Below, in pieces: positions 4,311 through 64,000 of a DNA stretch of 64,000 bases. The notes under the pieces are model-generated. The model worked only from the letters and a program-made list of their open reading frames with translations. It was not told the DNA's origin and searched no databases. Both the position numbers and the translations under genes were made by a program. Source of the stretch: Candidatus Latescibacterota bacterium (GTDB lineage: Bacteria > Latescibacterota > UBA2968 > UBA8231); contig CBDETK010000013.1 of the NCBI GenBank assembly GCA_965242865.1, positions 5,549,567 to 5,613,566 on the forward strand, written 5' to 3'. Each line of letters begins with the position of its first letter. Positions within the stretch are counted from its first letter, which is position 1.

Positions 4311-6262
4311 TAAGGTTCCTCGGCGGTGAGTCGCTGGTTGGTCTGGATCGGGCCGTCCCAGGTCTGCACCTGACCCGAGGGCCAGCGCACCGTTAGGCGA
4401 TCCACCGCCGTCGCCGTCCCCAAGCCAAAGTAGAGTCCCCAAGCACTCTGCGACAGATACCCGGACTGCCCATCCTGCACTTGGGTATATACCTGATCCC
4501 CGGCTCGTACTGCGACCACTGCGCCCAACCCATCTCGGTTCGACGATTTCCCCACCAGCACCACTTCCAAGTAGCGCAACTCCGTCTGCCGCTGACTTAG
4601 GTCGCTGAGCAAGACCTGCGGCACGCCATTGAACTCGTTGGTCACAATGTCGAGATCGCCATCGCCCTCCACGTCGAACAGCGCGGACGAGCGCGTCCCC
4701 AAAGCGCCGTACACCAGCAAGCCGCCCTGTTGGCCCTCGCAGTTTTTGTGCTCCCGATCCGCCCCATCGCAGTCGAGGGCGAACCACGGCTGCGCGGTCC
4801 GACCGTGGCGGCGCGGCTCCACCCCTAAGACGAACTCGCTGTCGAGGAAACCGCGCCCTCGGTCGTTGAGCAAGACGGTGTTGATGCCGTAGCGAAAGGG
4901 GTAATTCATGCTCGCCGCCACGAACACATCCTGCCAGCCATCGGCGTTGAGATCGCCGCTGCTCACCCCCCACGGCCAATAATTCTCCGCGCCGATTAGG
5001 TCGGAGATTTCTTCAAACCGCCCCTCGCCTATATGGTGGTAAAAGGCGTTGCCGAAGATGCTCTGCCCGTCGCTCCGCAAAAAATCTTCTGGATACTGCA
5101 TGTACGCCTTGAGCTTTTCGTCCCAAGGCCCGACCGGCTGACTCATGTCGGAGTGCATGTCCGAGATGAAGAGATCCAGCCGGCTGTCGTTGTCGTAGTC
5201 GAGGGCCTTGATCCCCATCGCTCCCCACGGCGTTTTGGGGAACAGCACCCGGCTCTTTTTAATGAAATGCTGCCCGGCCGCGTTTTCGTAGTAGGCGTCG
5301 TGCCCCTGCATGTTGAGCACGTAGAGGTCCTGCCAGCCGTCGCCGTTGAAATCCACCGGACTGGCGTCGCCCGACCAGCTCGAATCCAACAACCCCACTT
5401 GGCGGGAGACCTCGGCGAACACCCGCTGCCCCAGATTTTTGAACAACGCGCTCTGCTCGGCGCGCTCGGGCTTCAAATGCCCAGAGAAGGCATCCTTGAA
5501 ACCTCGGTAGTACTGATAGGTCGCCCCCTCCTCCAGCCGCGTGGGATCGACCGCGGCCGTCCGCTTTTCGTCTTGGGTGTAGATTCCCACATTGGTCACA
5601 AACAGGTCTAGCAACCCATCGTTATCGTAGTCGAAGAACTCACCGGACGACGAGTGCGCCTGCCAGCCCGTGCCCGAATGCTCGGTTGCGTCCTCAAAGC
5701 GGCCAGCCCCGTCGTTGACCAAGAGCCGATTGCCCAACCGCACCGCGGTCGCGTACAGATCGATGTCGCCGTCGTTGTCAATGTCGCCAAACGACGCGCT
5801 GACCCCGATCCGGTCGGCCAGCTCCAGACTCGACGTAGTGTGGTTTGCAAACCGCGCTCCCCCGAGATTGCGCCACAACTGATTGCTGCCCACTTGGGTC
5901 GTAAAGTAGAGGTCGTAGCGTCCATCGCCATCCACGTCCCCCACCGCCAGCCCATTGCCGTGGTCGTAGTGGACCGGGATGTGGTCCTTGCCCGAATCCG
6001 CCACCACCCGATTGCGAAACGCAATGCCGCTGGCTGCGAGTTGGTCGGTAAAGGAGAAATCGCAAAAGACCGCGTAGGCTTGGGCGGCCTCCAACTGGGC
6101 TTGCTGGCGACGCGCCAACCAAGGAGGCTCGACGATGGCGGCCGGCTCGGGAAAGGGCTTGAGCAGGGTTGCCGACCGGTCGGATTCAGCGCGGGCAATG
6201 GTTGAGGGAGCGAGCGCGAGAATGCACAGCGCAGTGAGAAAAGCCGCCTGACAATTGGACAT
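4310..6262 (-). CDS. Secreted CRTAC1/ASPIC-UnbV family FG-GAP repeat protein
   Basis: Signal peptide after ATG 6262; repeated DxDxDG motifs (GDVDGDGRYDLY, DYDNDGLLDLFV); C-terminal SNRDGLGA..GYLSQS..LYFGLG..VRWPSG. Confidence 0.88.
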   Translation of the reverse strand: MSNCQAAFLTALCILALAPSTIARAESDRSATLLKPFPEPAAIVEPPWLARRQQAQLEAAQAYAVFCDFSFTDQLAASGIAFRNRVVADSGKDHIPVHYDHGNGLAVGDVDGDGRYDLYFTTQVGSNQLWRNLGGARFANHTTSSLELADRIGVSASFGDIDNDGDIDLYATAVRLGNRLLVNDGAGRFEDATEHSGTGWQAHSSSGEFFDYDNDGLLDLFVTNVGIYTQDEKRTAAVDPTRLEEGATYQYYRGFKDAFSGHLKPERAEQSALFKNLGQRVFAEVSRQVGLLDSSWSGDASPVDFNGDGWQDLYVLNMQGHDAYYENAAGQHFIKKSRVLFPKTPWGAMGIKALDYDNDSRLDLFISDMHSDMSQPVGPWDEKLKAYMQYPEDFLRSDGQSIFGNAFYHHIGEGRFEEISDLIGAENYWPWGVSSGDLNADGWQDVFVAASMNYPFRYGINTVLLNDRGRGFLDSEFVLGVEPRRHGRTAQPWFALDCDGADREHKNCEGQQGGLLVYGALGTRSSALFDVEGDGDLDIVTNEFNGVPQVLLSDLSQRQTELRYLEVVLVGKSSNRDGLGAVVAVRAGDQVYTQVQDGQSGYLSQSAWGLYFGLGTATAVDRLTVRWPSGQVQTWDGPIQTNQRLTAEEP

Positions 6263-6401
6263 GTTATCGCAATCTCGTGAGAAGGGCGTCAAGAAAGCGG
6301 CATTTACCCGCTCTGTCAAGAGAGTGCGCCTTGCCGCCCCGTCGGCGCGTTGGATATTATGGAACGCTCGCAAAGCCAATGTCCCGAAGCCTTCACACGC
6401 C

Positions 6402-37459: not shown

Positions 37460-37608
37460 GGCTTCGTGTAGCGCGAGGGGCGGGGAACGAAAACAAAGAA
37501 TATACTATACGAATGTGCAGCGGGCAAGCGGTGGGATGCGGATAGACGGCTTTGATCTAAAGGTAGTGCTGTGTATCAGACACTAGGGGCTGAGTGTCTT
37601 AGACCGCA

Positions 37609-38853: not shown

Positions 38854-38894
38854 TTTACCTTGCCGTATCCCGCCATATCGTTGCTCAACCGCCC

Positions 38895-40049
38895 TTACCC
38901 AAAGAGAGGCAACCGCATTGGGCGCAACGCCCTGTCGCCATCTTCTTCGATGCCTAGCCAAGGCGCAATGAAACGCGCTAGGGCCTCGACGCATGGGATG
39001 GCTACCGCATTTCCGAATTGCTTATAGGCTTGCGTATCGGAAACCGGGATCACAAATCGGCTTTCGCGTGGCTTGTCAAAACCCATGAGCCTCGCACATT
39101 CCCGCGGCGTCAAGCGACGCGGGTTTTGCCGCTCGCGTTTCACGAGAATTTCGGAGCCATCCTTATAGTAGCGGGCCGAGAGGGTGCGCGCTCTATCTTC
39201 TGGGCCAACAAGCCCGAAACCGAAACCATTGCCGGCCGCCCGGTGCTTTTCAGCATACCGCTGAAGATAGCTCCACAGGTGGTTGGAGAGCGTGTACTTG
39301 TCGGAGACCTTTGCTTTTGGTCCTAGCGTGTATGGACTTTCAGCGGGTTCGCTGCCGTCTTCAGGGTGTAGAACCGCCTTGAGCCGTGGTCCCTTGAGCG
39401 GGTCGGGAACAACAAAATCGTTAAAAGAAAACAGGTTGGGATCGCGGAAGCCGACAATGAAAATCCGCTCGCGGTGTTGTGGAACCCACGAACGGGCATC
39501 CACGACCTTTGAGTGAACCTGATATCCCAACTCATCGGTTAGTGCCCGGTGGATTACGCGAAATGTTCGGCCCTTATCGTGATTGACTAGATTTTTGACG
39601 TTTTCGAGAAAAAAAGCATGGGGCCGATGAGCCTCAATGATCCGCGCCACATCAAAAAAAAGTGTTCCCTGTGCTTCGCAACGGAACCCGTGCGGCTGCT
39701 TGAGCGCATTTTTCTTTGACACGCCCGCGATCGAAAATGGCTGGCACGGGAAACCCGCCAGCAACAGGTCATGTGGCGGAATTTTATCTATTGGGACCTG
39801 TGTAATGTCCCCAGCAATCTCGTGATCGCAGTCGTAGTTGGCTTGGTAGGTGCGTTGGGCGTACTTGTTCCACTCACTGGTGAATACGCACTTTCCGCCC
39901 AACGGCTCAAAGCCGCGGCGCATCCCGCCAATACCAGCGAACAAGTCGATGAATCTAAAGGCCGGATGGCTTGGAGTTCTCGACTCAATCGACAAGGCGG
40001 TCTGCTCTTTTTGCGGTTTGCCAGCGGATTTATTCTCAATAGGCGGCAT
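38895..40049 (-). CDS. dcm: C5-cytosine DNA methyltransferase (Dcm/M.EcoRII-like)
   Basis: [53 protein letters not shown]. Confidence 0.92.
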
Positions 40050-40172
40050 GATAATGGGAAACCTTTCTGGATTGCTTTCCGTGCCCGTCTTAGCGGCGGC
40101 GGAATGGAGGGAACCGGCCACATTCAATTAAATAGACCAACCGCCAAACCCCGTCAAGCACGCTCCCGGCAT

Positions 40173-48000: not shown

Positions 48001-48984
48001 TACGAGTGGCATCCAGTATTGGTGAATCGCTCGGGAAGAAAAGAGCGCAAGGTGTGGCCGGTGAAATACACGCGTATGTTCGACATGGCGAATGATTCTC
48101 ACCTCTTCAGAACGGCTGAACAGCTCGATGCGGAAGGTTTTTATCCCGTTGAGGGCAACCGCTGGAAACGGGGCGAGGAGCTGTATTTGCCGCTGTATCA
48201 AGGCCGGATGATTTGGCACTTTGACCACCGCGCCAACTCGGTTCGCGTCAACCCGGAGAGCACACACAACCCGTACCTCAGCGAGGAAGTAACCCAAGCG
48301 CAACACGCCGACCCCCGGTTCCTGCCCCAAACACAGTATTGGGTGCCAGCTCACAACGTAGAGGCGGCTTTGCCCCAAAGTCGCGGGTACGCCTTGGGCT
48401 TCCGCGACATCACCAATCCTACAAATGAGAGAACAGTCATTGCTTCCATCGTCCCATGGGCGGGGTATGGAAACACTATTCCTCTACTCCTCAGTGCCGA
48501 CCCCTTGGCCACCGCGTATCTCATGGCCAACCTGAATGCGATATGTGTGGACTTTGTTGCAAGACAGAAGGCTCAAGGTACGCACCTGAATTGGTACATC
48601 CTCGAGCAACTCCCCGTTATCGCTCCCGACGCGTACGACCAAAAATTCGGCCCCACAACCGCCCGCGACCTCGTCCGCGACCACGTCCTCCGCCTCACAT
48701 ACACCGCCCACGACATGGCTCCTTTCGCCCGCGACCTCGGCTACGATGGCGACCCCTTCGTCTGGGACGAAGAGGAACGCCGCCACCTACGCGCCCGCCT
48801 CGACGCGCTCTACTTCCACCTCTACTGCTTGTCACGCGACGCCGCCGAATACATCCTCGACACCTTCCCCATCGTCCGCCGCGACGACGAAGCCGCCTTC
48901 GGAACATACCGCACCCGCGATATGACGCTGGCGTACATGAACGCGCTCGCCGCGGGGGATACGGAGACGAAGGTCGCGGTGTAG
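45016..48984 (+). CDS. Type IIG fused restriction endonuclease / N6-adenine methyltransferase (Eco57I-like)
   Basis: PD..ESK nuclease motif, WGILTNG, YNGGLF, LGSIYERLL, GSFYT, LDPAMGSGHF, GNPPW, C-terminal TRD region. Confidence 0.9.
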   Translation: MDMPGQLFTHYFLTDGIKATAEWQASCAQPEAFAAFRDGVARRLDALSRSQEPNEAATEQDLIRPVLALLGWVDYLPQQSGAGNEDIPDHLLFADADAKQQAAAERNAGARLSYAAVVAESKRFGLSLDSRERSGSPHGQILRYLATAEIASEGRVRWGILTNGRVWRLYDYRARPRASGYFEVDLGELLAPGREDDLRVFHLLFCRASFALQAGATTTFLEAALAEGRRYEEQVAQDLSGVVFERVFPRLVDALAEASGQSLAESRDAALIFLYRLLFVLYAEDRGLLPVNDGRYDDYGLRKRVRDDIVRRMATNDTFSAKFTLYYDHLVNLFRIIEEGDESIGLPPYNGGLFAADAAPLLETTRLADAPLAPIIHDLSHVEGRFVNYRDMSVQQLGSIYERLLEREPVRTDGNISIRLNPYARKDSGSFYTSQELVDLIVERTLRPLADERLNAFAKKAAALQSDRRSKQERRVELERFDPAVAVLDLKVLDPAMGSGHFLVTAVDFLSDYIAELIERVPAVPEWLDGEYTSPLVGRVAAIRDDIRQRATASNWVLDEAQLTDQAIIRRMVLKRCIYGVDKNRLTVELAKVSLWLHSFTVGAPLSFLDHHLRGGDSLVGLRVRDATDELHRLGGMFAGSAIAGAEMATEGMQRIEEMSDADVAEVQASAALFDGVEKTTADLRGLLNFLCGWRWLTAGMKKQERDAFEGPLGTTIGQHPADAYELLARGPEDDDARFAELWHAARKIANEEGFLHWEVAFPGVWHQWQDRCPQGGFDAVIGNPPWDRIKLQEVEWFASRAPELALAPTAAARRKGIQNLRDQRSSLAAEFDAAKERADTLGRLVRASGDYPLLSGGDINLYSLFVERAMSLIKPDGFVGLLTPSGIYADKTAARFFKSVSTKGQVGGLFDFENKKIFFKDVHASFKFCALILGGEERRFDQTECAFFLHDTKTVHDEDRCFPLTPDDFARVNPNTNTAPVFRRRKDAEITRYIYEWHPVLVNRSGRKERKVWPVKYTRMFDMANDSHLFRTAEQLDAEGFYPVEGNRWKRGEELYLPLYQGRMIWHFDHRANSVRVNPESTHNPYLSEEVTQAQHADPRFLPQTQYWVPAHNVEAALPQSRGYALGFRDITNPTNERTVIASIVPWAGYGNTIPLLLSADPLATAYLMANLNAICVDFVARQKAQGTHLNWYILEQLPVIAPDAYDQKFGPTTARDLVRDHVLRLTYTAHDMAPFARDLGYDGDPFVWDEEERRHLRARLDALYFHLYCLSRDAAEYILDTFPIVRRDDEAAFGTYRTRDMTLAYMNALAAGDTETKVAV

Positions 48985-49104
48985 GCGATTTAGGCGGCTA
49001 TTGACCAGTGTTATAGTGATTTATAATATGTACTTAGGTCTCTCGGCCAATAACTAAGAGAAACCCCTGATAATGTTTCAAAAGGGAATTATATAGATAC
49101 CTAA

Positions 49105-50028
49105 GAAGCCTTTTTAAAACTCCTTTTTTGCTTGGATTTGACGTTGGCGTACTCACCGCACCCCTTCAGGTTTCGCCTAAGACCCCTGAACGAAAGGTCT
49201 CCGATGAGTACGCCCTATCAATATCCGACCGACCTAACAGACGCGCCATGGCAGCGGCGGTCTCCCCTCGTACCCTCTCGTCGTTGGCGTCGGGGGGGTC
49301 CGGGTCGTCCTCCCCGTACTCTACGTTTGGTGCTCAATGGGATCCTCTATCGAGCTAAAACCGGCTGTCCGGGGCCGATGCTACCGCCGACGTTTGGCCC
49401 TTGGCAAACAGTGTATGGATACTTCAACCGCTGGCGACGAGCCGGACCCTGGCAGCGGATGTTGGACGCCTTGACCCGCCAACAGCGCACCCGACAAGGC
49501 CGCCGGCCAACCCCTTCGGCCGGCGGCATCGACGCCCAGCGTGTCAAGACCGCCACGCAAGGCCGAGCTATAGGGTACGACGCCGGGAAACGGGTCAAAG
49601 GGCGCAAACGCCACCTGTTCGTCGATAGCCAAGGCTCGATCCTACAAGGCAAGGTCACCGCCGCCGATGGCTCCGACGCCGACGGCTTAAAGGCCCTGTT
49701 GAGGGACTATTTCTCCGCTGGCGTCCAACGGCTGAGAAGCGTGTGGGTCGATGCCGGCTACCGAGGGGAGGCACTTAACGCATGGGGCGCCAACTTAAAA
49801 AAAACCTATAAAATCCGATTGGAGGGCAGCGAAAAACCACGCCCCGGCTTTACCCTACTCAAGCGCCGATGGGTCGTAGAACGAACCTTTGCTTGGTTGG
49901 GCAACTATCGTATCCACGCCAAAGATTATGAGATCGTAACCGACAATAGCCAAGCCTTTATACACATCGTTATGATCCATCTGTTGCTCAAGCGAAAAAA
50001 CAAAGAAAAAGAGTTTTAAAAAGGCTTC
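49105..50028 (+). mobile_element. IS5 family (IS1031 group) insertion sequence, 924 bp
   Basis: Perfect 18-bp TIR gaagcctttttaaaactc / gagttttaaaaaggcttc; TAA duplication at 49102-49104 and 50029-50031. Confidence 0.92.
49204..50019 (+). CDS. IS5 family transposase
   Basis: YPTDLTD, NGILY, IDAQRVK, GKRVKGRKRH, VDAGY, RRWVVERTFAWL. Confidence 0.9.
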   Translation: MSTPYQYPTDLTDAPWQRRSPLVPSRRWRRGGPGRPPRTLRLVLNGILYRAKTGCPGPMLPPTFGPWQTVYGYFNRWRRAGPWQRMLDALTRQQRTRQGRRPTPSAGGIDAQRVKTATQGRAIGYDAGKRVKGRKRHLFVDSQGSILQGKVTAADGSDADGLKALLRDYFSAGVQRLRSVWVDAGYRGEALNAWGANLKKTYKIRLEGSEKPRPGFTLLKRRWVVERTFAWLGNYRIHAKDYEIVTDNSQAFIHIVMIHLLLKRKNKEKEF

Positions 50029-53137: not shown

Positions 53138-53296
53138 ATATACTTACTGAAGCAACAACCCGCCCTCGTCCACAGCAACAGAACGGAGGGAATGCTTATG
53201 AAGGACATCGTCTCAACGGGCTTGGGGCTTGCAGCCCTAGCGGCCAGTGCTTCCCCGCGGAGATCGCCGCGAGATGACAAAACCAAGGAGAACACC

Positions 53297-54136
53297 ATGA
53301 AACCCGTAGCCATTCAAACCCTGTATTTCGCCCTAGTCGCCATTTGGTTCGCTGTCTCCAGCATAGCCGCTGCCGAGAAGCCCCAATACGGCGGCTTTTC
53401 ATCTAACCCCGACAGCCTCCAGCCCTTCTACGACTATATCCACGGTCAAGAGATGATGAAGGTCGAGGCCGGTGATGAATTGCGGCGTGCTATAGACGCC
53501 ATCCCGGTTGACTTGGGTACTGCCATTGATCTGGAGCAAGAAGCCGGACTGCGAGACTGGCTCTACGACTTGCTGGTCGCCTTTTCGGCGTCAGGCAACG
53601 ACAGCCTCGCCGCCGCGTTTTACCTGCGCGAGGGCTTCAATAATCCCGACCTAGCAGTGCAGATGATAAAGGAGGTTGAGCGTAGGGGGATCTCAATAGG
53701 CAATACCGATACGCCTTTTGCCTTCTGTAAAAGTATGCACAAGTTCGCGCTCAATTTTTTAGCGGAGCGCGACTATTTCTTTGAAAACGTGTCTTTTTTT
53801 GATAGCGTGTTCAAAGTGTTCGAGATGCAGGAAGCGTACGATAGCTATGAGTCCTACCTCAAGACCCATGGCATGATTCCGAGAGGCATAGACTTCTTTG
53901 ACCTCATCAAAATGCGGAAAGAAGTTGAGGAGCGATTGCAAAAGGGTGCCCAACTGGTCTTTGTCGATGTCATGTTCATCGTTGAAGAGCCTGAGCAGTT
54001 CTCAACATTCGAGAGGCCGGGGCGCACCCCGTCCTTTTTTCGGCTAGCTTGGGACTCAGAGAAGGGTGTTTGGCGCCATGTAGAGATCTATTTTAGCCAA
54101 GGTGTGCCGCAAGATTTTTTATTTAACATCATGTGA
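53297..54136 (+). CDS. Secreted hypothetical protein, paralog A
   Basis: RBS aaggag, signal peptide ending AAA; homologous over full length to 54265-55095. Confidence 0.85.
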   Translation: MKPVAIQTLYFALVAIWFAVSSIAAAEKPQYGGFSSNPDSLQPFYDYIHGQEMMKVEAGDELRRAIDAIPVDLGTAIDLEQEAGLRDWLYDLLVAFSASGNDSLAAAFYLREGFNNPDLAVQMIKEVERRGISIGNTDTPFAFCKSMHKFALNFLAERDYFFENVSFFDSVFKVFEMQEAYDSYESYLKTHGMIPRGIDFFDLIKMRKEVEERLQKGAQLVFVDVMFIVEEPEQFSTFERPGRTPSFFRLAWDSEKGVWRHVEIYFSQGVPQDFLFNIM

Positions 54137-54264: not shown

Positions 54265-55095
54265 ATGAAAATCCTAGCCATTCGCATCTTGTCTGTCGCC
54301 CTGATCGCTGTCGCCAGCACAGCCATAGCCGAGCCTACATCCCAATACGGCGGCTTTTCATCTAACCCCGACAGCCTCCAGCCCTTCTACGACTATATCC
54401 ACGGTCAAGAGATGATGAAGGTCGAGGCCGGTGATGAATTGCGGCGTGCTATCGACGCCATCCAGGTTGACTTGGGCGTTGCCATCGATCTGGAGCAAGA
54501 AGCCGGGCTACGCGACTGGCTCTACGATCTCTTGGTCGCCTTTTCGGCTTCGGGCAGCGATAGTCTCGCCGTTGCATTTTACATGCGAGAGGGGGCAACC
54601 AACTCCGACCTAATAGAGCAGGTAAGCAAGGAGGCTAAGAGCCAAGGAATCCTAACAGGCGATACCGACACGCCCCTTGCTTTCTTTCGCAGCTTTCACA
54701 AGGTCGTGCTCAACATGGCGGAGCGCGATTATTTCTTCGCCAATGTGTCTTTCTTCGACAGCGTGTTCAAGGTGTTTGAGATGCAAAAAGAATACGATAG
54801 CTATGAGTCCTATCTCGACACGCATGGCATGCTTCCCAAGGGCAGCGTGTTCTTTGAGCACATCAAACTACGGCAAGAGGTCGAAAAACGCTTGCAAGGG
54901 AGCACCCCACTGATCTTTGCCGACGTCATGTTCATCGTCGAGGAGCCCGAAGAATTTAGCACGTTTGAGACCCCGGGGCGTACGCCGACCTTTTTTCGGT
55001 TACTCTGGGATGAAGAGCAGGCGTTGTGGCGTCATGTAGAGGTCTATTTCAGCCTCGGTGTGCCGCATGAATTTCTTCTGTTCAACTTCATGTAA
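54265..55095 (+). CDS. Secreted hypothetical protein, paralog B
   Basis: RBS gaggt, signal peptide ending AIA; QYGGFSSNPDSLQPFYDYIH ... WRHVEVYF. Confidence 0.85.
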   Translation: MKILAIRILSVALIAVASTAIAEPTSQYGGFSSNPDSLQPFYDYIHGQEMMKVEAGDELRRAIDAIQVDLGVAIDLEQEAGLRDWLYDLLVAFSASGSDSLAVAFYMREGATNSDLIEQVSKEAKSQGILTGDTDTPLAFFRSFHKVVLNMAERDYFFANVSFFDSVFKVFEMQKEYDSYESYLDTHGMLPKGSVFFEHIKLRQEVEKRLQGSTPLIFADVMFIVEEPEEFSTFETPGRTPTFFRLLWDEEQALWRHVEVYFSLGVPHEFLLFNFM

Positions 55096-55111
55096 TTCTA
55101 GGAGCCGCACC

Positions 55112-56686
55112 ATGATCGGCATTGTGTTCAAAAAAGAGATGCTCAGCCATCTGCTCAGCCAGCGTTTCGCCGCTTGCACCATCCTCGCCGTCGTGCTGAT
55201 TCTCGCCAACGGCGTCCTCACGACTCAGACCTATGTCCACAAAAAGGCCAGCTACTTCACCCAGCGGGCCACTGAGGACAGCAAACTACACGAAATCACT
55301 TACTATTCGGTGCTGGGCAGCGATTGGTGGATGGTGCCCAACGGTATGCCCAAGCCTAGGGCGGCTCCGCGAGCACTGCGGGCTCCGCGCCCCTTAGAGG
55401 CGTTCGCCCGAGGCGCCGAACGACAGTTGGGACAGGCCGTCAGGGTGCTGCTCTTTGAGGTGCCTTACCAAGCCGCGGAGGTCTCCCCCTTCCAGTCGAG
55501 CAACCCTTATCTCGCCATCTTTGCCTTCTTCGACATGGTGTACATCTTCCAACTCGTACTCGGGTTGCTGGCCATCCTCATCGCCAGCGAAACCATCTCC
55601 GGCGAGAAAGAGGACGGTACGCTGCGGCTGATGCTGTCCACCAATGTCAGCCGCGCCCAAGTCCTCGCCGGCAAAATCCTCGCGGGTTTGACCACGCTGG
55701 CCATTCCAACGGCTCTCGGCTTCATCCTGCTGACGATCTTGCTGTTGGGCACGGAGCAGATCGACGTCGGGGCTGGCGAGTGGGTGCGGTTGGGGCTGCT
55801 GTTCGCACTGTCGCTGCTGTATCTGCTGGTGTTCTATTTGATTGGACTGGCGATCTCATGCGCGACGCACCGCTCGGCGACTAGCTTGGTCGTCGCGCTG
55901 TTTGCGTGGGCGTTGCTGGCGATAGTGCTGCCCAACAGCCTCTCGGCCTTGCTCAACGAACAGGCCAACATGGGCGAAAAGCATGCCCAAGCCCATCATA
56001 AGGCCGCGCAAGTGTGGAAGGAGTTCGATCAGGAGGTCACCGACCTCGCCCGGGCGCACAACCAGCCGAAGTACTTTCCCATAGATATGGTCGAGCGGCT
56101 CCCGCCGAGGGCGGAACGCGGGACGCTATCCTACTTCAAAGGAACGGACGCGTACTCTATCAGAGACGGGCAGACGCCTGACCTCTGTCTATCGAATATC
56201 GCCGATACACCCGCGTTGGCGAAATTCCAAGACATCGTCCGCACCGGCGAGCGGCTGCGCTTGAAATACGCCCAACGCGCTTGGAACGAGAAAGCCCCTC
56301 TGCTCGAAGGCTTTCCCCGCCGAATCCAACGCCTCAACGACCAACTCCAGCGCCTGCTGCCCGCTGGTGCCTACGCCCAAGCCGCCAGCCTGCTCGCTGG
56401 CACCAGCCGCCGTGAATACGACGACTTCATCGACCAAACCCGCACCTATCGCGGGCAGATCATCGCCTTCCTCGAAGAGCGCGATGCGTTTGGCTCCCGC
56501 GAGTGGTTCAACGACGATCCCGGCTGGCGCGCCGACCTGCGCGACTTGCCGCGATTTGCCGAGCGCGGCTGGACCGTTGCCGAGAGCCTGCGCCATGCCT
56601 TGCCGGCACTGACCTCCCTGCTGCTGTATGCGACCGTGCTCTTTGTCCTCGCCAACCGCCTCTTTGCCCGCTACGACGCGATGTGA
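55112..56686 (+). CDS. ABC-2 type exporter permease with large extracytoplasmic loops
   Basis: IVFKKE, ISGEKEDGTLRLMLS..SRAQVLAGK, six TM helices. Confidence 0.88.
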   Translation: MIGIVFKKEMLSHLLSQRFAACTILAVVLILANGVLTTQTYVHKKASYFTQRATEDSKLHEITYYSVLGSDWWMVPNGMPKPRAAPRALRAPRPLEAFARGAERQLGQAVRVLLFEVPYQAAEVSPFQSSNPYLAIFAFFDMVYIFQLVLGLLAILIASETISGEKEDGTLRLMLSTNVSRAQVLAGKILAGLTTLAIPTALGFILLTILLLGTEQIDVGAGEWVRLGLLFALSLLYLLVFYLIGLAISCATHRSATSLVVALFAWALLAIVLPNSLSALLNEQANMGEKHAQAHHKAAQVWKEFDQEVTDLARAHNQPKYFPIDMVERLPPRAERGTLSYFKGTDAYSIRDGQTPDLCLSNIADTPALAKFQDIVRTGERLRLKYAQRAWNEKAPLLEGFPRRIQRLNDQLQRLLPAGAYAQAASLLAGTSRREYDDFIDQTRTYRGQIIAFLEERDAFGSREWFNDDPGWRADLRDLPRFAERGWTVAESLRHALPALTSLLLYATVLFVLANRLFARYDAM

Positions 56687-56712
56687 GCCATCCAACCAAA
56701 GGAGCTATTCCC

Positions 56713-58164
56713 ATGTTAGCAGCCATTGTAAAACGCGAACTGATCGACCACCTCAGCAGCCTGCGCTTCGGCTTGGCCCTCGTGCTGACGGTGGGGCTGA
56801 TGGTGCTCAACGCCCTCAGCTTTGTCGGCGGGTCCTACGAGTTCCGGCGCGACCACTACCTCCAGCAAGTCCAAGCCCAGCAAGAAATCGGCCGCAGCCA
56901 CGCCCAACGCGGCCTGTGGAAGCTGATCCTCCACGCCGGGCAAGAGTACATCTACAAAAAACCCAGCCCCCTCATGTTCTGCGCGGCCGGGGCCGACGAC
57001 ACCCTGCCCGAGCGGCTCTGGACCCAAGGCGGCGAAGACTCCTACAATCAAACCCGATTCTACAACCCCTTTGTCCTGATCTATTGGGACATCGTCGACA
57101 TCTGGGCGCCCAAGGCCAGCCAACTGCTGGAGACCCAAGCCGTCGACTGGGTCTTCATCATCGGCGGCCTGCTCAGTCTCATGGCCCTGTTGTTCACCTT
57201 TGACGCCTTCATCGGCGAAAAAGAGCGCGGCACCCTCAAGCTGGTCATGGCGCAGAGCTTGCCACGGCACACCCTGCTGTTGGGCAAGTTCCTCGGCGCG
57301 ATGCTCGCTCTCGCCCTCGCCCTAAGCCTCGCCATCGTCGTCAACTTGCTCATCGTCCTCGCGCTGTCGCAGGTGAACTTGGGTCTGGTTGAGGCCGGGC
57401 GCATCGTCGGCATGGTCGGCCTGTCGCTGCTGTATCTGGCCTGCTTTGTCGGATTGGGCCTGTGGGTGTCGATCCGGAGCAGCACCACCCGCTCCAGTCT
57501 GGTGGGTGTGTTGTTGCTGTGGACCTGTGGGGCGTTGCTGTGGCCGGCCACCGGCGGCGCATTGGCCGCTCGCGTGTTGGTCAGCGAATTTGAGGAGGAA
57601 TTGATCCTGGGGTGGGGCTTTGCCCACAACAGCACACCCGCCCACGAAAGCCTCCTAACCCTCAAGAGGCGTTTGGGGAACCGCGATCTGAGAAACCCGC
57701 AAAAAGTGCGCCAGTTGGCCGACGCCCAACGCGCCGTGCGCCAGTTCAACCAAAACCGCGAAGACCGCTTTTTGGCCTACAGCCTCGGCGAAGTCGAAAA
57801 CGCCCGCCACATCGTCCGCCTGTCGCCCACCGGCTGCTTCCAGTACGGCATGGAAGCCCTCGCCGGCACCGGACTGGCGCGCCACAAGAGCTTTGTCGAG
57901 CAAGCCCGCACGTACGTCCAGCAGTTCGAGCAAACCATGCTCAACCGCGACCGCGACGACCCCAAAAGCATGCACATCCACCTCGTCGCCCAAGGGCTGT
58001 CGCGCCAGAAGATCGACCCGGACACGCTGCCGGTGTTCACCGAGAACCTGTCGGCGACGACCTTGCTGCGGCATGCGGTCGTCGATGTCATCGGCCTCTT
58101 CTTCTTCGCCATCCTCACCTACATGCTGGCCTACCGAGCGTGGCTACGCGCCAGCATCGTCTAG
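56713..58164 (+). CDS. ABC-2 type exporter permease (second paralog)
   Basis: IVKRE, FIGEKERGTLKLVMAQSLPRHTLLLGKF, RLSP. Confidence 0.88.
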   Translation: MLAAIVKRELIDHLSSLRFGLALVLTVGLMVLNALSFVGGSYEFRRDHYLQQVQAQQEIGRSHAQRGLWKLILHAGQEYIYKKPSPLMFCAAGADDTLPERLWTQGGEDSYNQTRFYNPFVLIYWDIVDIWAPKASQLLETQAVDWVFIIGGLLSLMALLFTFDAFIGEKERGTLKLVMAQSLPRHTLLLGKFLGAMLALALALSLAIVVNLLIVLALSQVNLGLVEAGRIVGMVGLSLLYLACFVGLGLWVSIRSSTTRSSLVGVLLLWTCGALLWPATGGALAARVLVSEFEEELILGWGFAHNSTPAHESLLTLKRRLGNRDLRNPQKVRQLADAQRAVRQFNQNREDRFLAYSLGEVENARHIVRLSPTGCFQYGMEALAGTGLARHKSFVEQARTYVQQFEQTMLNRDRDDPKSMHIHLVAQGLSRQKIDPDTLPVFTENLSATTLLRHAVVDVIGLFFFAILTYMLAYRAWLRASIV

Positions 58165-58185
58165 CAGTCGTCGTCGCCGCCACTG

Positions 58186-58380
58186 GGGGCGGCGACTGCG
58201 GGGGCGGGGGCGGCGATGGCGATGGCGGCGATGGCGATGGCGATGGGGACGGGGGCGATGGTGGCGGGCGGTGGCGATGGCGGCGACAGCGGCGGTGGCG
58301 ATGGCGGCGACAGCGGCGGTGGCGATGGCGACTGCGGCGATGGCGATGGCGACGACTGCAACGGCGGCGACGACGGGGCC
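58186..58380. repeat. G-rich low-complexity GGCGAT/GGCGAC array
   Basis: Repeated ggcgat hexamers and tandem ggcggtggcgatggcggcgacagc units. Confidence 0.85.
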
Positions 58381-58381
58381 A

Positions 58382-58419
58382 TGCGATGTTTCGACGCACC
58401 TCTGCGATATATCCGCGCA
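58382..58419 (+). promoter_or_regulatory. Paired enhancer-like sites TGCG-N9-CGCA (UAS 2)
   Basis: tgcgatgtttcgacgca (58382) and tgcgatatatccgcgca (58403). Confidence 0.75.
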
Positions 58420-58562
58420 CTTTCAGCGCATCCAGCGGCTTTCGCAAAGTACCTAAGAGCCGGCCACGAAAATAATTTTATCTCCACAAAACATTATATA
58501 ACAACTAGTTACAACCATCATCCCCAAGAAATCGCCGCAATCATCACCCTCTACCTCCCTAT

Positions 58563-58578
58563 TGGCACGATAATTGCA
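58563..58578 (+). promoter_or_regulatory. sigma54 (-24/-12) promoter 2
   Basis: TGGCACG-ATAA-TTGCA. Confidence 0.88.
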
Positions 58579-58700
58579 ATAATACTCACTGACCACAACA
58601 CTCAAGAAGGATTCATCGCAATGCGAGCAGCCAGCACAAAACGCGAACCAATTGACCCCCTCAGCAGCCAGTGCCCTAAGCTGCGGAAAGGAGTGTAATT

Positions 58701-60212
58701 ATGTATTCCATTTTCTACGTCTTCGGCCTGCTGGTGTGCGCCGTCGCCGCCAACGCCGAGACCCTGACCAAGGAGCAGCAGCGCATCCTGCTCGACCTCG
58801 AAGAGGCCCATCTGACCCGCCAACAAGCCCAAGCACACGAGGCTGAGATCGCCATTGAGCACGAGCAGATGATTGGCCTCAAGGAACGCGGCGTGGTCAC
58901 CGGCCAAGAGCTGCGCCGCGCCCGCGAGCGATTTGAGCGCGCCGGCCAGATGCGGCAACAAGCCGACCTCAACCTCCAGCGCGCCTTTCTCAACTCCCTC
59001 AGCGACGCCACCCACCTAACGGTCGTCAACGGCCAAAAGTACGGGGTCGAGGGCGACAAGGTGCGCGTGCGGCTCACCCTGCGGAATGACTCGGACCTCC
59101 ACTTGGCGCAAATGGTCGATCGCGCCCGCCGCCGCTACGCCATCAACGGCCTCGACCAAGACGCAGAGTCCCTGTTGCAGGTCAACAACATCTTCGTCAC
59201 CATCCTCGCCGACCGCGTCATGGTCGGCCAGCCCTACCAAGTCCACATCCCGGTGCTGGCCCTCGGCGAGGAAGTCGAAGTCGAAGTCGGCTTGCAGCGG
59301 CCCGAAGTCGAAGACCTCACCGTGCAGCTCCAATACCTCAACCGCACGGACGACCACGTCATCCACCTAGAGAAAGCGTCGGCCCGCGACGTCGTGCGCG
59401 TGTATGCCACTCAGTTTTCTCAAGAAGGCCCGCTGGGCAATTCCGTGGAATACGAGTTGCAGCTAGAGCGGCTGGCCGAAGACGAAAAGATCTTCCAATT
59501 GATGGCGCACGGCCTGCCCGACGACTTCCGCTGGGAGTTTGCCAGCGGGGGCCGCACCCTGTCGCGGCTGCGCTTTTCCCGCGACCACTCCAACGATTCC
59601 CTGACCCTCAACGTGTACGTGCCCGAACAGGCCGTCAGCTTTGCCGTGGACCAGCCGCTCGTGTTCTCGGTGCTCGCCTACGATCCCAAGGACATCGAAG
59701 CCGAGGTGTTGGCCGCGGCCGACCCCGACCGCCTGCAAGCCATGGGCATTGGCTACGAGCAACTGCAACTGGTGCCCACCGGCCGCGCCGAGCTGGAGTT
59801 GAGCACCCTCAACCTCGACCTCGCCGTCAATGGCGCCGGCGAGTCCCAGTCCGTTTGGCAGCTCCGCAACCTCGGCACGGTGGAATTGCTCGACATCCGC
59901 CTACAAGCCCTGTCGCCGCCCGGCTGGGAAGTGTCCTTTGAGCCGCAGGAAATCGCCCTGCTACAGCCGCGTGCGGAGGTAGAAGCCCTGCTGACCGTGC
60001 GGCCAGTCAACAGCGCCGAAATCGGCCGCTACGAAGTCAAGACCAGCGCCAGCACCCAGCACAAGGGGCAGTGGGTCGAGTCGGTCGAGCGCACCGTCAA
60101 CATAAACATCAAGAGCGATGGGTCGTTTTGGGGCATCACCGGGTTGGTGCTCTTGCTGGTGACCATCGTGCTCGGCGTGGCTGTCTTCACCGTGCAATGG
60201 AGCAAGCGATGA
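58701..60212 (+). CDS. Secreted, C-terminally anchored protein: coiled-coil hairpin + Ig-like (NEW3/NPCBM-associated-like) domains
   Basis: Signal peptide; helical GVVTGQEL hairpin; LRNLG..PPGWEVSFEP..IGRYEV; C-terminal TM + KR. Confidence 0.75.
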   Translation: MYSIFYVFGLLVCAVAANAETLTKEQQRILLDLEEAHLTRQQAQAHEAEIAIEHEQMIGLKERGVVTGQELRRARERFERAGQMRQQADLNLQRAFLNSLSDATHLTVVNGQKYGVEGDKVRVRLTLRNDSDLHLAQMVDRARRRYAINGLDQDAESLLQVNNIFVTILADRVMVGQPYQVHIPVLALGEEVEVEVGLQRPEVEDLTVQLQYLNRTDDHVIHLEKASARDVVRVYATQFSQEGPLGNSVEYELQLERLAEDEKIFQLMAHGLPDDFRWEFASGGRTLSRLRFSRDHSNDSLTLNVYVPEQAVSFAVDQPLVFSVLAYDPKDIEAEVLAAADPDRLQAMGIGYEQLQLVPTGRAELELSTLNLDLAVNGAGESQSVWQLRNLGTVELLDIRLQALSPPGWEVSFEPQEIALLQPRAEVEALLTVRPVNSAEIGRYEVKTSASTQHKGQWVESVERTVNINIKSDGSFWGITGLVLLLVTIVLGVAVFTVQWSKR

Positions 60213-61606
60213 CTGCCTACCGATTGGCCTTAGCCGCCCTCGCCTGCGGGGCGAGCGCCCTGTGCGCCGAGGAGTGGGACCTAACGACCTGTCAGCGCGC
60301 GGCCGGCCAGCACAGCCCGGTGATCGAGGCGGCGCGCGCCCGCTGGCATACGACGCGCGCGCGCACCCGCCTCGATGTGGCCGAGCAACTGCCGGACGTT
60401 GGCCTGCAAGCCCAGTACGAGCGCAGCGACTGGGCGGACGCGACCGCGCCAGAGGCCGACCAACGCGCACTGTTCTTGCAAGCCCGGCAAGAGCTCTTGC
60501 GCTACGGGGCCACCACCCCAACGCGCTTTGCCGCCCAGCACCGCGAGCAGGCCGAAAAGGCGCGCTACCGCCAAGCCATCATCGACGTGGATAGCCAAGT
60601 GCGCCAAGCCTATTACCGCCTGCTGCTGACGCGCGACGAAATCGCCAACCGCGACGAGTTGCTCGCGTACTTCCGCGCCAAAATGGAGCGGGTGCAAACG
60701 CGCCTCGACGCCGGCTTGGCCCGGCCAGTGGAGCTGTACGAAGCCGAGCTCGAAGTGCTCGAAGAGCAGGCGCGCATCAACCACCTCCAGCGCACCCTGC
60801 GCGCCCTGCATCTACAGCTCTTCACCGAGATTGGCTTGGTGGGCAAACGCTCGCTGCGCGCCCTTGAGATTGTCGGCCCGCCCTACGAGCAACTGCAATT
60901 GCTCGACCCCAGCGAAGCGGATTTGCCCGGCCTGCTCGAGGAAGCCCGGGCCAACCGGCCGCAACTGGACGAACTCGTCTGGCAAATCGGCCAACAGCAG
61001 CGGCAGGCCCGCAGCGTGTTGTGGCAATGGGCACCTCACGTCGGCCTGCAACTGACCAAGGATTTCCAAGACACGGACCTCGGCTTGGACTGGAGCGGCA
61101 ACGGCCAGACTTGGAAGCTGGTGGGGTCGGGCCGCCGGTCGCTGGCCAGCCGGGGCTTGGCGGCCGAGCCGGACGCGGGCGAGGGCTGGCGGGTGATGGC
61201 CAACGTGTCGCTGCCCCTGTTCCAAGGGGGGCGGCGGCTGGCCCAGCGCACCGAGGAGAACGCGCGGCTCCACGAGCTGCGCCAAAACCGCGACGAGACC
61301 CGCCACTGGATCGAACTCGAAGTGGTGGAGGCGTTTTACGATTTGAAGAGCCGGCAGGAAAACACCCAGATTCTGCGCCGGCGTGCGGACGTGGCTCGCC
61401 AGCGGTTGGACACGGTCGAAGAGCTGTTTGAAAACGCCATGGGCAACCTCAACTTCGACGACATCCGCCGCCAGCGCACCGCCGTCAACCTAGCCGAGCA
61501 GCGCTACTTCGCCGAGCGCTTGGCGTACATCCTCGCGGCCGAAAAGCTGCGGCGGATCTTGGGCCGAGCCCTCAACAGCGAGTTTTACCAAACCCGTGAT
61601 CAGTAA
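60209..61606 (+). CDS. TolC family outer-membrane efflux protein
   Basis: Signal peptide, VRQAYY, RLDAGLA, VSLPLFQGG, EVVEAFY. Confidence 0.85.
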   Translation: MTAYRLALAALACGASALCAEEWDLTTCQRAAGQHSPVIEAARARWHTTRARTRLDVAEQLPDVGLQAQYERSDWADATAPEADQRALFLQARQELLRYGATTPTRFAAQHREQAEKARYRQAIIDVDSQVRQAYYRLLLTRDEIANRDELLAYFRAKMERVQTRLDAGLARPVELYEAELEVLEEQARINHLQRTLRALHLQLFTEIGLVGKRSLRALEIVGPPYEQLQLLDPSEADLPGLLEEARANRPQLDELVWQIGQQQRQARSVLWQWAPHVGLQLTKDFQDTDLGLDWSGNGQTWKLVGSGRRSLASRGLAAEPDAGEGWRVMANVSLPLFQGGRRLAQRTEENARLHELRQNRDETRHWIELEVVEAFYDLKSRQENTQILRRRADVARQRLDTVEELFENAMGNLNFDDIRRQRTAVNLAEQRYFAERLAYILAAEKLRRILGRALNSEFYQTRDQ

Positions 61607-61634
61607 CCCCTGATCGCAAAGAAAGGATCGCCTC

Positions 61635-62359
61635 ATGTTGGAGATCATCGGACTTTCCAAGCACTACGGTGACGTCAAAGCGGTCACCGACCTCACCCTG
61701 ACCGTCGAAGAAGGGGAGATTTTCACCATGCTCGGTGCCAACGGCGCCGGCAAGACCACCACCTTGATGGTCGCGTTGGGCTTTACCGAACCCACCGAGG
61801 GGACGGTCAAGCTGTGCGGCATCGACATCACCGAGCAGCCCTTAGAGGCCAAAAAGCACGTGGCGTACGTCTCGGAAAACGTCATGCTCTACGGCAACTT
61901 CAGCGCGCGGCAAAACTTGGATTTCTTCACCCGCTTGAGCGGCCAGCCGCCCCAAGACGCGGCCCAGTACGACCAGATCATGGGGCGGGTGGGGCTGCAA
62001 TCGGAGGCGTTTGACCGCCCGGGTCAAGGAGTTTTCCAAGGGGATGCGGCAGAAGCTGGGCATTGCCATTGCCATCGCCAAGGACGCCCGCATCGTGCTG
62101 CTCGACGGAGCCGACCTCTGGCCTCGATCCCAAGTCCGGGGCCGAGTTCTTGGCGTTGCTGGACCAGTTGCGCGACGAGGGCAAGGCCATCTGGATGACG
62201 ACCCACGACGTGTTCCGGGCGCGGGTGATCGCCGACCGACTCGGCATCATGGTCGAGGGCCACCTCGTCAAGACGCTCAGCCGCGCCGAGTTCCAAGAGG
62301 CCGACTTGGAGCGGCTCTACGTCGAGTACGTGGAGCAGCCCGTCGTGCCAGCGGCTTAG
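61635..62359 (+). CDS. ABC ATP-binding protein carrying two +1 frameshifts (sequencing error or pseudogene)
   Basis: GANGAGKTT in frame 1; FSKGMRQK..IVLLD in a second frame after about 62018; EPTSGLDP..TTHD in a third frame after about 62107. Confidence 0.85.
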
Positions 62360-62377
62360 GGGACGCAGGGGGTTTCT

Positions 62378-62452
62378 GGATTCCCGCGTTCGCGGGAATG
62401 ACGGTAGGAGCGTTCGCGGGGGGCTCCGTCATTCCCGTGAAAACGGGAATCC
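62378..62452. repeat. Inverted pair of REP palindromes
   Basis: ggattcccgcgttcgcgggaatgac (62378) and gtcattcccgtgaaaacgggaatcc (62428). Confidence 0.85.
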
Positions 62453-62526
62453 AGCCGAGATCGTTTGGACGCAAGAAACGACCACCAGAGTTTGCAGACC
62501 GCTTCTTAGGATGGAGGCATGCTGAC

Positions 62527-63000
62527 ATGGAAACCACGGCGCTGGACTCAATTCACCAAAAGCGCATATACGGATTGGCGTACCAGTATATGACCAACCG
62601 CGAGGATGCCGAGGATGTCGTCCAAGAGGTGCTGCTCCGCCTGTGGGACCACAATTCCGGCCTTACCGGCCAAGCTCAGGAGGCTTGGATCTATCGGGTG
62701 ACGCGCAACGCCTGTTTGGACGCCTTGCGGCGGCGGAACAGCTATCGCTCGGCGGTTGAGACTCGGGCGGGCGAACCCGCCGGGCAGAACGCCTCGGCGG
62801 TCGAGGGGAGCTTGCTCCAGCACCTCGGCATTGAGGAGGCCCTGAGCCGATTGGCCGAGCCTTACCGAACCGTTATCCGGCTGCGGTATTTTAAGGGGCT
62901 GTCTTGCAAAGCGACGAGTCAGGAGCTAGGGATGCCCCTTAGTACGGTCAAAGTATATCTCCACCGCGGCCGGAGACGCCTGCGGGACCTTTTGGAGTAA
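62527..63000 (+). CDS. ECF sigma-70 factor
   Basis: RBS ggagg; DAEDVVQEVLLRLW..WIYRVTRNACLDALRRR; region 4 LGMPLSTVKVYLHRGRRRL. Confidence 0.9.
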   Translation: METTALDSIHQKRIYGLAYQYMTNREDAEDVVQEVLLRLWDHNSGLTGQAQEAWIYRVTRNACLDALRRRNSYRSAVETRAGEPAGQNASAVEGSLLQHLGIEEALSRLAEPYRTVIRLRYFKGLSCKATSQELGMPLSTVKVYLHRGRRRLRDLLE

Positions 63001-63045
63001 ATCGATCGACGTGTTCTACAATCTGCTCCACTTTTTTATTTTTTT

Positions 63046-63075
63046 TGTAACATTTTTCTAACGGCATACGTTATT
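63046..63075 (+). promoter_or_regulatory. Putative ECF promoter copy 1
   Basis: TGTAAC-N17-CGTT after a T-tract; duplicated near 63796. Confidence 0.6.
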
Positions 63076-63139
63076 ACTTATGAAGCGTTCTTAAAACAGA
63101 TAAAGACGATCTTTCACCTCCACCTCAAGGGGGACTGTC

Positions 63140-63334
63140 ATGAAGCGGAAACTGTCGAAAGTGGCCATCGGCCTCATTGCCCTCGCTGTGCAACTCTTGC
63201 CGAGCAAAGCAGAGGCTATAACGTGCTGCATAGAACTGCCGAGTGGGGTCAAGATGTGCATCTATTGCCCTAGTGACGCTAGCTGCGAATTTGAGCTGTT
63301 AGGCAACGGCAATTATAGGGTTATGTGCATATAG
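63140..63334 (+). CDS. Small secreted cysteine-rich peptide (26-aa signal, 38-aa mature, 6 Cys)
   Basis: RBS aagggg; MKRKLSKVAIGLIALAVQLLPSKAEA then ITCCIELPSGVKMCIYCPSDASCEFELLGNGNYRVMCI. Confidence 0.8.
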   Translation: MKRKLSKVAIGLIALAVQLLPSKAEAITCCIELPSGVKMCIYCPSDASCEFELLGNGNYRVMCI

Positions 63335-63427
63335 CCAACTTGCCCAGCAGCTATCCTCGGTTGATCTACATACCCTCCACTTTGCCTTGAGTTATCGAGG
63401 ATAACTTGCGAGGGAGGCAGGCTCGTC

Positions 63428-63776
63428 ATGAAAAACACGTATCGCTACTCAATATACCAAAAGCGCATATACGGATTAGCGTGCCAGTATATGGCCAACC
63501 GCGAGGATGCCGAGGACGTCGTCCAAGAGGTGCCTGCCCCGCCTGTGGAACCATCACTCTTGCCTTACCAGCGAAGGGCAGGAGGCTTGGATAGGGCGGG
63601 TGACGCGCAACGCCTGTTTGGACGCCTTGCGTTGCGGCGACGGAACAACTATCGCTCGGCTGTCGGGACTCAGGCAGGCGAAGCAGCCGTGCAGAACGCC
63701 CCGGTGGTTGAGACGAATTTGCTTCAGCACCTCGGCATCGAGGAGGCTCTGAGCCGACTGGCGGAGCCCTACCGAT
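63428..63776 (+). pseudogene. Frameshifted, region-4-deleted copy of the ECF sigma gene
   Basis: Close DNA match to 62550-62868; frameshifts near 63533 and 63630; ends at AEPYR then jumps to the downstream promoter copy. Confidence 0.85.
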
Positions 63777-63795
63777 TTTATTTTTTTATTTTTTT

Positions 63796-63825
63796 TGTAA
63801 CATTTTCCTAACGGCATCCGTTATT
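63796..63825 (+). promoter_or_regulatory. Putative ECF promoter copy 2
   Basis: tgtaacattttcctaacggcatccgttatt, nearly identical to copy 1. Confidence 0.6.
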
Positions 63826-63877
63826 ACTTATGAGAAGCGTTCTTAAACAATGCGAAAATCATGCAAGGAGGCTTTCT

Positions 63878-64000
63878 GTGAAAACGCTTACGCTCTTGTG
63901 CAGTGCGCTTATTATCACACCCGTACCCAGTCAAGCCCGCGAAGGGGGCTATGGCGGCTTTACCCAAGAGAACATACAGGAGTTTTACGACTACATACAC
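63878..64000 (+). CDS. Secreted hypothetical protein, paralog C (5' part; runs off the right edge)
   Basis: RBS aaggagg, GTG; MKTLTLLCSALIITPVPSQAREGGYGGFTQENIQEFYDYIH matches YGGF..FYDYIH of paralogs A and B. Confidence 0.75.
   Translation, partial: MKTLTLLCSALIITPVPSQAREGGYGGFTQENIQEFYDYIH

Follow-up and report, generated by a model that had tools for sequence, protein, structure and literature searches.

The window analysed here, a 64-kb stretch of DNA, carries near its end an open reading frame (ORF) for a small six-cysteine pre-peptide, preceded by an intact ECF sigma gene and a promoter-like element and followed by a decayed copy of the sigma gene, a second copy of the element and the start of a second secreted-protein gene. 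The features are as follows:

62533..63000, + strand: intact ECF sigma gene, 155 aa, 45 nt upstream of the promoter element
63032..63083, + strand: 52-nt promoter-like element, comprising a T-rich tract, TGTAAC (63046-63051), a 17-nt spacer and CGTTAT (63069-63074)
63127..63134, + strand: ribosome-binding site (RBS) AAGGGGGA, 5 nt ahead of the ATG
63140..63334, + strand: six-Cys pre-peptide gene, ATG at 63140, TAG at 63332-63334, 64 codons
63140..63217, + strand: Sec-type signal peptide, codons 1-26, ending in A-E-A, assigned by reading the sequence and from the alignment
63218..63334, + strand: 38-aa mature six-Cys peptide, codons 27-64 plus the stop, with invariant Cys and two beta-hairpins predicted by AlphaFold2
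63428..63775, + strand: decayed second sigma copy, 84-87% identical at the nucleotide level (repeats D1-D3), with a partial Sigma70_r2 only
63782..63833, + strand: second copy of the promoter-like element, direct repeat D4, 96% identical, boxes at 63796-63824
63878..64000, + strand: beginning of a second secreted-protein gene, which starts with GTG and extends beyond the window, with 82% blastn identity to positions 4937-5088 of L001, a related locus on the Latescibacteria MAG chromosome OY282352.1

The ORF at 63140..63334 translates into the 64-aa sequence MKRKLSKVAIGLIALAVQLLPSKAEAITCCIELPSGVKMCIYCPSDASCEFELLGNGNYRVMCI. Its first seven residues include four basic ones (K2, R3, K4 and K7). 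A hydrophobic core of 13 residues follows, with Pro at -6 and A-E-A in positions -3 to -1, and the pre-peptide, as read from its sequence, thus has the n-, h- and c-regions and the small -3/-1 residues of a substrate of Sec and signal peptidase I. The A-x-A motif was present in 11 of 11 aligned sequences (the window peptide and 10 homologues), among which M1-L5, K7, A9, I10, L12, A14, L15, Q18, L20, P21, A24 and A26 were invariant. Processing as a lipoprotein by signal peptidase II was rejected, as the +1 residue is Ile, the first Cys stands at +3 and there is no L-(A/S)-(G/A)-C lipobox. In the mature part, which has a net charge of -2 and contains no His, Cys residues occupy positions 3, 4, 14, 17, 23 and 37, giving CC-x9-C-x2-C-x5-C-x13-C. 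The original prediction had claimed a 38-aa mature peptide with this spacing behind a Sec signal ending in AEA, a good RBS and an even number of Cys. The first matched exactly, the Sec layout was read in the sequence with A-x-A kept throughout the alignment, and the RBS was found in place; its equivalent in L001 is AAGGAGGG.

A search of 5.8 billion protein clusters (E<=10) yielded 10 homologues of 62-66 aa with E-values from 3.6e-34 to 4.3e-4. The six Cys form invariant columns in their alignment with the window peptide, and the closest full-length homologues, one 98% and several 72-84% identical, keep all of them. Conservation of all six Cys in 10 homologues argues against a chance reading frame, and on this comparative evidence 63140..63334 is a real gene, which very probably encodes a genuine secreted disulfide peptide of a new family. 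Broken frames at homologous loci had been named in the original prediction as evidence that would count against it; the L001 copy is indeed truncated, but the 10 homologues are full-length with six Cys.

A profile search of 1.84 billion representatives without a word filter returned 10 proteins at E<=1e-3, and a 21-member profile run against 5.8 billion proteins returned 49 at E<=1 among 520 candidates. None of the proteins found bore a name from any source. The exact window peptide is already present, also without a name, in NCBI- and ENA-derived protein sets. It matched 0 families in Pfam, NCBIfam and PADLOC, and 50 relatives searched against Pfam gave sub-threshold matches only, none reaching a family cut-off. 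In the literature covered, no description of the six-Cys family was found, and the best ESM Atlas score, 0.82, lay inside the range of shuffled sequences. Profile matches to PDB sequences were confined to antibody light chains (E 0.04-0.5) and were taken as chance. Among 8000 scored candidates no longer or fused form appeared at E<=1, which hints that the six-Cys domain stands alone.

A tblastn search with all the family proteins collected detected no second copy in the 64-kb window, and against genome loci it detected one truncated copy, in L001 only. The genome scan had returned six loci, of which L001 alone represents a genuine relative; in L002-L006, from Herpetosiphon and a Chloroflexia MAG, the similarity is confined to residues 12-30 and was dismissed as chance signal-peptide likeness. 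The longest contig recorded measures 5,613,566 bp for each of the window peptide, its paralogue P0004 (group A, as defined below) and P0034 (group C), and 62,277 bp for P0002 as well as P0011. From these equal bp values, at least three family members appear to share one 5.6-Mb contig, and we infer that the family is multi-copy per genome.

Fifty sequences were analysed further after the truncated or aberrant P0018, P0047, P0053 and P0054 had been dropped; P0014, the window's own peptide, was counted once and P0023 was read from an internal Met. Signal and mature parts were split five residues past the conserved hydrophobic-hydrophobic-Pro motif, an operational rule rather than a SignalP prediction. 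By this rule the signal is 26 aa long in 49 of the 50 sequences and never contains a Cys. The mature parts are 28-46 residues long, mostly anionic (net charge -5 to +1 across the family) and hold six Cys in 36 cases, four in 13 and five in one; the even Cys number anticipated for the window peptide is therefore found in 49/50 members. The sequences were sorted by signal type and Cys framework into three groups, listed here with mean pairwise identities, in which mature parts were compared without their Cys and the contrast between signal and mature part is partly inflated because the searches were largely signal-driven:

Group A (that of the window peptide), 19 members: CC-x(8-11)-C-x(2-3)-C-x(3-6)-C-x(8-13)-C in 18, four Cys in 1; identity 0.77 in the signal, 0.30 in the mature part
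Group B, 11 members: four Cys; identity 0.72 in the signal, 0.32 in the mature part
Group C, 20 members: mostly C-x3-C-x4-C-x8-C-x-C-x7-C; identity 0.87 in the signal, 0.25 in the mature part
Group A versus group C: identity 0.48 in the signal, 0.17 in the mature part

Notwithstanding this ascertainment effect, comparison of the sequences indicates that different Cys frameworks stand behind clearly related 26-residue signals. The original prediction had looked to homologues with conserved Cys spacing and variable loops. The six Cys are invariant among the close homologues and the loops do vary, whereas the exact spacing of the window peptide recurs in only 6/19 group A members, the window included; CxxC is kept in 17/19 and CC in 18/19 of them. 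In six members of group B (P0021, P0024, P0025, P0028, P0029 and P0031) the second hairpin turn is His-rich (D-H-G-D-H-aromatic-H), and two of the 50 relatives, both of group B, weakly matched the zinc-binding Pfam family Strep_his_triad below its cut-off (best E 0.0082); the His-rich members are possibly a metal-binding subgroup. In group C, 15 of 54 family proteins (among P0033-P0046, P0049 and P0050) carry CxxxC...CxC, the signature of a cysteine-stabilised helix, following a related signal, and weak Pfam matches were obtained for two sequences to Antimicrobial25 (E 0.00047) and for one to Defensin_2 (E 0.034).

The AlphaFold2 model of the full-length pre-peptide was mediocre (pLDDT 66.6). 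The mature part modelled alone from 21 aligned sequences reached a pLDDT of 86.5, with predicted strands at residues 2-6, 12-16, 23-27 and 33-37 (mature numbering) and no helix, that is, two predicted beta-hairpins. In the register of this model C4 lies opposite C14 and C23 opposite C37. C4 and C14 are both present in 18/19 group A sequences, and in the 4-Cys relatives P0015, P0019, P0020 and P0021 one Cys of the CC pair is absent jointly with the Cys at position 14. This joint absence is evidence that the two are bonded, in which case C3 and C17 would make up the third pair. Covariation and strand register, rather than model coordinates, thus suggest the disulfides C4-C14, C23-C37 and C3-C17. 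Homodimer prediction for the mature peptide scored 0.02 and speaks neither for nor against a dimer. Foldseek returned nothing at E<=0.001 for the full-length model, and a wide VIA-align search with the mature model gave nothing significant, its best match (Z 2.8) being an unrelated Synechocystis protein.

The original prediction had considered a defensin- or knottin-like effector, and neither comparison favours it. PMC11561630 describes the cis-defensin Cys pattern, C-x(2,18)-C-x3-C-x(2,12)-C-x(4,17)-C-x-C, and five classes, whose members were selected for a predicted signal peptide and come from Proteobacteria, Acidobacteria and Actinobacteria, with 0 occurrences of 'Latescibacter' in its text. 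None of the 54 family proteins, the window peptide included, fits this pattern. Bacterial cis-defensins, actifensins and laterosporulins (PMC6989792, PMC5396196) are small bacterial three-disulfide peptides, as is predicted for the window peptide. In contrast to cis-defensins, the window peptide is modelled as all-beta, with no helix pinned to a beta-sheet, its net charge of -2 is not cationic, and its mature part has neither CxxxC nor CxC. The mostly anionic character of the six-Cys family also sets it apart from typical membrane-active antimicrobial peptides. Knottins share with the window peptide six Cys within ~30-40 residues, a beta-rich structure and secretion. However, the joint loss of a CC-pair Cys and Cys III suggests a bond between Cys I or II and Cys III, with which the knottin pairing I-IV/II-V/III-VI would not be compatible. 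No knottin was found among 24 chains at Z>=2 in VIA-align, although the model is very small for such a search.

Stacked beta-hairpin mini-folds, such as granulin-like folds and the first loops of three-finger toxins, are also built of disulfide-pinned hairpins, as predicted for the window peptide, and VIA-align rows included bucandin (Z 2.7), bungatoxin (Z 2.5), ringhalexin (Z 2.3) and a rice granulin-like fragment (Z 2.0). All of these Z scores, however, lie below 3 and amount to noise, the Cys patterns differ, and nothing among them speaks for common descent. In organisation, conotoxin superfamilies and the mussel MgCRP-I peptides are closer, as a conserved signal, varied mature parts, multiple copies and several Cys frameworks occur there as here; for MgCRP-I, PMC4558851 describes a highly conserved signal and a hypervariable mature part around invariant Cys. 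Unlike both, the family of the window peptide comes from bacteria and lacks a pro-region, and it matches them neither in sequence nor, at a significant level, in predicted fold. The order CC-C-C-C-C is, we assume, formally like one of the conotoxin framework numbers. The likeness to venom and immune peptides is limited to organisation and mode of evolution.

The sigma gene at 62533..63000 matched Pfam Sigma70_r2 (1.5e-17) and Sigma70_r4_2 (2.4e-15) and scored 92.1 bits against NCBIfam TIGR02937 sigma70-ECF (cut-off 42.9). Its best equivalog, NF058625, reached 103.3 against a cut-off of 130, so no subgroup was assigned. No anti-sigma-like ORF lies between 62533 and 63427. The 38-nt core of the promoter-like element occurs twice, compared with 0 occurrences expected from 100 shuffles, and GTAAC-N16-18-CGTTA is found only at these two sites in the 64 kb. 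A combined sigma-70 promoter and terminator scan gave no sigma-70 promoter on the + strand before the peptide gene, and its one 'terminator' is the palindrome within the second element. The first element contains the palindrome TAACG-N5-CGTTA, and an operator for another regulator is thus possible. We take the element to resemble promoters of the B. subtilis SigX/SigW type. In Sinorhizobium meliloti, boxes of the TGTAAC type at -35 and of the CGTT type at -10 occur among ECF promoters assigned experimentally, such as those of RpoE7 and RpoE2 (PMC6180224), and the window element agrees with them in its AAC at -35, CGT at -10, 17-nt spacing and position beside an ECF sigma gene. The arrangement differs from classical ECF modules in having no adjacent anti-sigma gene and in placing the element downstream of the sigma gene, before the payloads, and not upstream of it as in autoregulation.

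TGTAAC-N17-CGTTAT is a plausible ECF-type promoter with putative sigma dependence. The promoter that had been claimed for the peptide gene is thereby upheld as plausible and backed by the intact sigma gene and the second copy of the element, while its dependence on the sigma factor is still putative; ECF-sigma-dependent expression of the peptide gene is, in our estimate, slightly better than an even bet. The second sigma copy bears +1 and +5 insertions, has lost the part coding for region 4 and joins the second element directly. From its sequence, the locus reads as two tandem sigma-promoter-payload cassettes, of which the first is intact and has the peptide as payload. The same element precedes the second secreted-protein gene, and both may thus be payloads of one sigma factor. 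The L001 homologue of that gene encodes 312 aa and belongs to no Pfam family. The link of sigma gene, promoter and peptide was seen at the window locus only.

L001, the sole related genome locus from the scan, is syntenic with the window at 86-91% nucleotide identity over the NEW3-domain gene, the OEP gene and the ABC ATPase. There the sigma gene is a short remnant, the -35 part of its element is deleted, and the peptide gene sits after the 312-aa gene without an element. The peptide homologue (L001 6001-6332) is cut off after about residue 38 and fused into the 3' part of ORF 6072..6332, which has no family, and the peptide is therefore dispensable in that relative. A perfect 10-bp hairpin is located just upstream of it, at ~5945-5968. 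Comparison of the two loci indicates rapid turnover of the peptide region. Between the window and L001 copies of the peptide gene, 13 differences fall in the first 38 codons, with pN 0.129 and pS 0.069 and one partner being a pseudogene, whereas the three flanking genes have pN 0.04-0.095 and pS 0.25-0.33. The few silent and many replacement changes would fit recent paralogue exchange plus relaxed or positive selection. Decay is seen on the window side as well: its ABC ATPase (61635-62359) falls into three frames (ORFs 61635..62198, 62011.. and 62063..62359) and, judged by the intact 240-aa ATPase of L001, carries two frameshifts, so that it is a pseudogene unless the frameshifts are errors of sequencing.

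The array that surrounds the peptide gene, in the window as in L001, encodes two ABC-2 permeases, an OEP, an ABC ATPase, a protein with a NEW3 domain and secreted proteins of 276-314 aa. The TolC-like OEP gene of the window, identified by Pfam, indicates an outer membrane. A module of two ABC-2 permeases with DUF3526, NEW3, OEP and ATPase is repeated (window 55058-62359; L001 1-4631 and 6341-9364), and no membrane-fusion adaptor was recognised in it. Three paralogues of the 276-314 aa secreted proteins are encoded in the window, at 53192-54136, 54265-55095 and 63878-64000, and L001 has one at 4954-5892; they have no Pfam, NCBIfam or PADLOC family, and their genes, each before or after a pair of ABC-2 permeases, have a GC content of ~0.52 compared with 0.61 for the window. 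Between the ABC ATPase and the sigma gene, a REP-like 29-nt inverted repeat, 90% complementary with a 21-nt loop, occupies 62376-62454; a sub-threshold miRNA-family match to this hairpin, the only Rfam match in 60000-64000, was taken as chance. Farther upstream, a stretch of lower GC content (0.54) at 35218-40127 encodes an EcoRII-like endonuclease together with a C5 cytosine methylase, as well as a T5orf172-domain protein and part of a DDE_3 transposase; at 45016-50019 there follow an MmeI/Eco57I-type restriction-modification enzyme of 1322 aa and a transposase of the IS4/5 family.

Taken together, these data are best explained by a Sec-exported, sigma-controlled and diversifying extracytoplasmic peptide effector, a reading to which, as a whole, we assign a probability of about 0.5. 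The sigma factor encoded at 62533..63000 would read TGTAAC-N17-CGTTAT, where transcription of the peptide gene most likely starts. After export by Sec and cleavage behind A-E-A by signal peptidase I, the peptide would be oxidised in the periplasm of a diderm relative of the Latescibacteria MAG, giving a 38-residue, three-disulfide mini-protein with a double beta-hairpin. Across the family the exported part appears to have diversified into at least three Cys frameworks behind a conserved 26-residue signal, a combination that most likely points to a binding effector with a changing target. Such an effector could be a peptide with antagonistic or bacteriocin-like action, or it could serve as inhibitor or decoy, and a housekeeping protein is less likely. 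Antagonism, or a variable target generally, is the most speculative part of the proposal and is put forward tentatively, as an interpretation that we hold at less than even odds; no small membrane immunity-like ORF was identified beside the peptide gene among the window ORFs. Three larger points were absent from the original prediction, namely the multi-copy superfamily with its varied frameworks, the sigma-promoter-payload cassette and the decay of the locus.

Several other roles have to be weighed against this reading, two of which, a signal peptide and a metal-binding mini-protein, had been suggested from the outset and are conceivable for the window peptide. A small, exported peptide whose gene adjoins a sigma gene, with no anti-sigma-like ORF in 62533-63427 and no terminator-like site before the next sigma copy, might act as a pheromone or autoinducer, or as a periplasmic regulator of the adjacent ECF sigma circuit; given the missing terminator, the ancestral unit could even have been promoter-peptide-sigma. 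However, several divergent paralogues per genome and three Cys frameworks fit a one-to-one pair poorly, L001 has neither sigma nor peptide intact, and no receptor or sensor gene was seen beside the peptide gene, and we regard a signalling role as unlikely. Even less probable is a periplasmic metal-binding or redox mini-protein that would use the CC and CxxC Cys as free thiols and form no disulfides. The adjoining ABC-2 permeases belong to PF12679, a family whose members often carry the annotation of multi-copper enzyme maturation permease, CxxC and CC are kept in most of group A (17/19 and 18/19), and the two weak, sub-cut-off Strep_his_triad matches in group B point the same way; yet the Cys count is even in 49/50 sequences, the Cys completing CC and CxxC are lost jointly in 4-Cys relatives, as for a structural disulfide, and the window peptide has no His, with its Cys predicted at cross-strand hairpin positions.

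The location of the peptide gene within an ABC-2/NEW3/OEP/ATPase array, in the window and in L001, could instead mean that the peptide is a non-antagonistic cargo or accessory of these permease, ATPase and TolC-like modules, either as an exported substrate or as an envelope component. The two loci are syntenic, so that this context counts as one independent observation. Moreover, the window ATPase is frameshifted where the peptide is intact, the L001 transporters are intact where the peptide is broken, and a Sec signal crosses the inner membrane without an ABC exporter, which together make this role improbable. A conserved N-terminus followed by a hypervariable, Cys-rich C-terminus is also the layout of a RiPP precursor, with the former as leader and the latter as core. 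Here, however, the N-terminus shows all three regions (n, h and c) of a Sec signal as well as A-x-A. No radical SAM, YcaO or LanB/M domain, in agreement with the original prediction, and no peptidase-ABC exporter domain was detected by Pfam in the 51 ORFs scanned of the window, which ends 666 nt past the gene, nor was any RiPP enzyme or leader-peptidase exporter found in the seven distinct L001 ORFs scanned, six of them against Pfam; we consider a RiPP-type precursor very unlikely. A similarly small chance is given to 63140..63334 being a chance ORF or a functionless decaying remnant. Decay of the locus would favour it, as seen in the two frameshifts of the ATPase, the second sigma pseudogene and the truncated L001 peptide, but the frame is intact behind a good RBS, and the 98%- and 72-84%-identical full-length homologues keep all Cys.

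The diversifying extracytoplasmic effector is thus the reading that we prefer. To our knowledge, disulfide-rich secreted mini-proteins are well known in animals, plants and fungi, and few bacterial families have been described. The six-Cys family is new in having no name, curated family or structural relative, although secreted disulfide-rich peptides as such are known. Its pattern, with a signal more conserved than its product and several Cys frameworks sharing one signal type, is unusual for bacteria. If accelerated diversification holds, the target would be a changing one, for example competitors, predators or phage, and peptide engineering would gain compact, stable scaffolds of ~30-45 residues. 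The 52-nt element and the neighbouring sigma gene could in addition serve as a compact pair for orthogonal expression. A bolder and rather doubtful possibility is that the uncultivated, Latescibacteria-related lineage maintains a venom-like arsenal, that is, a superfamily defined by its signal, with three or more Cys frameworks, more than one copy in each genome and accelerated change behind a frozen signal, delivered as payloads of ECF cassettes. If true, such an arsenal would be a bacterial counterpart of the conotoxin or NCR-type families and a source of new disulfide scaffolds.
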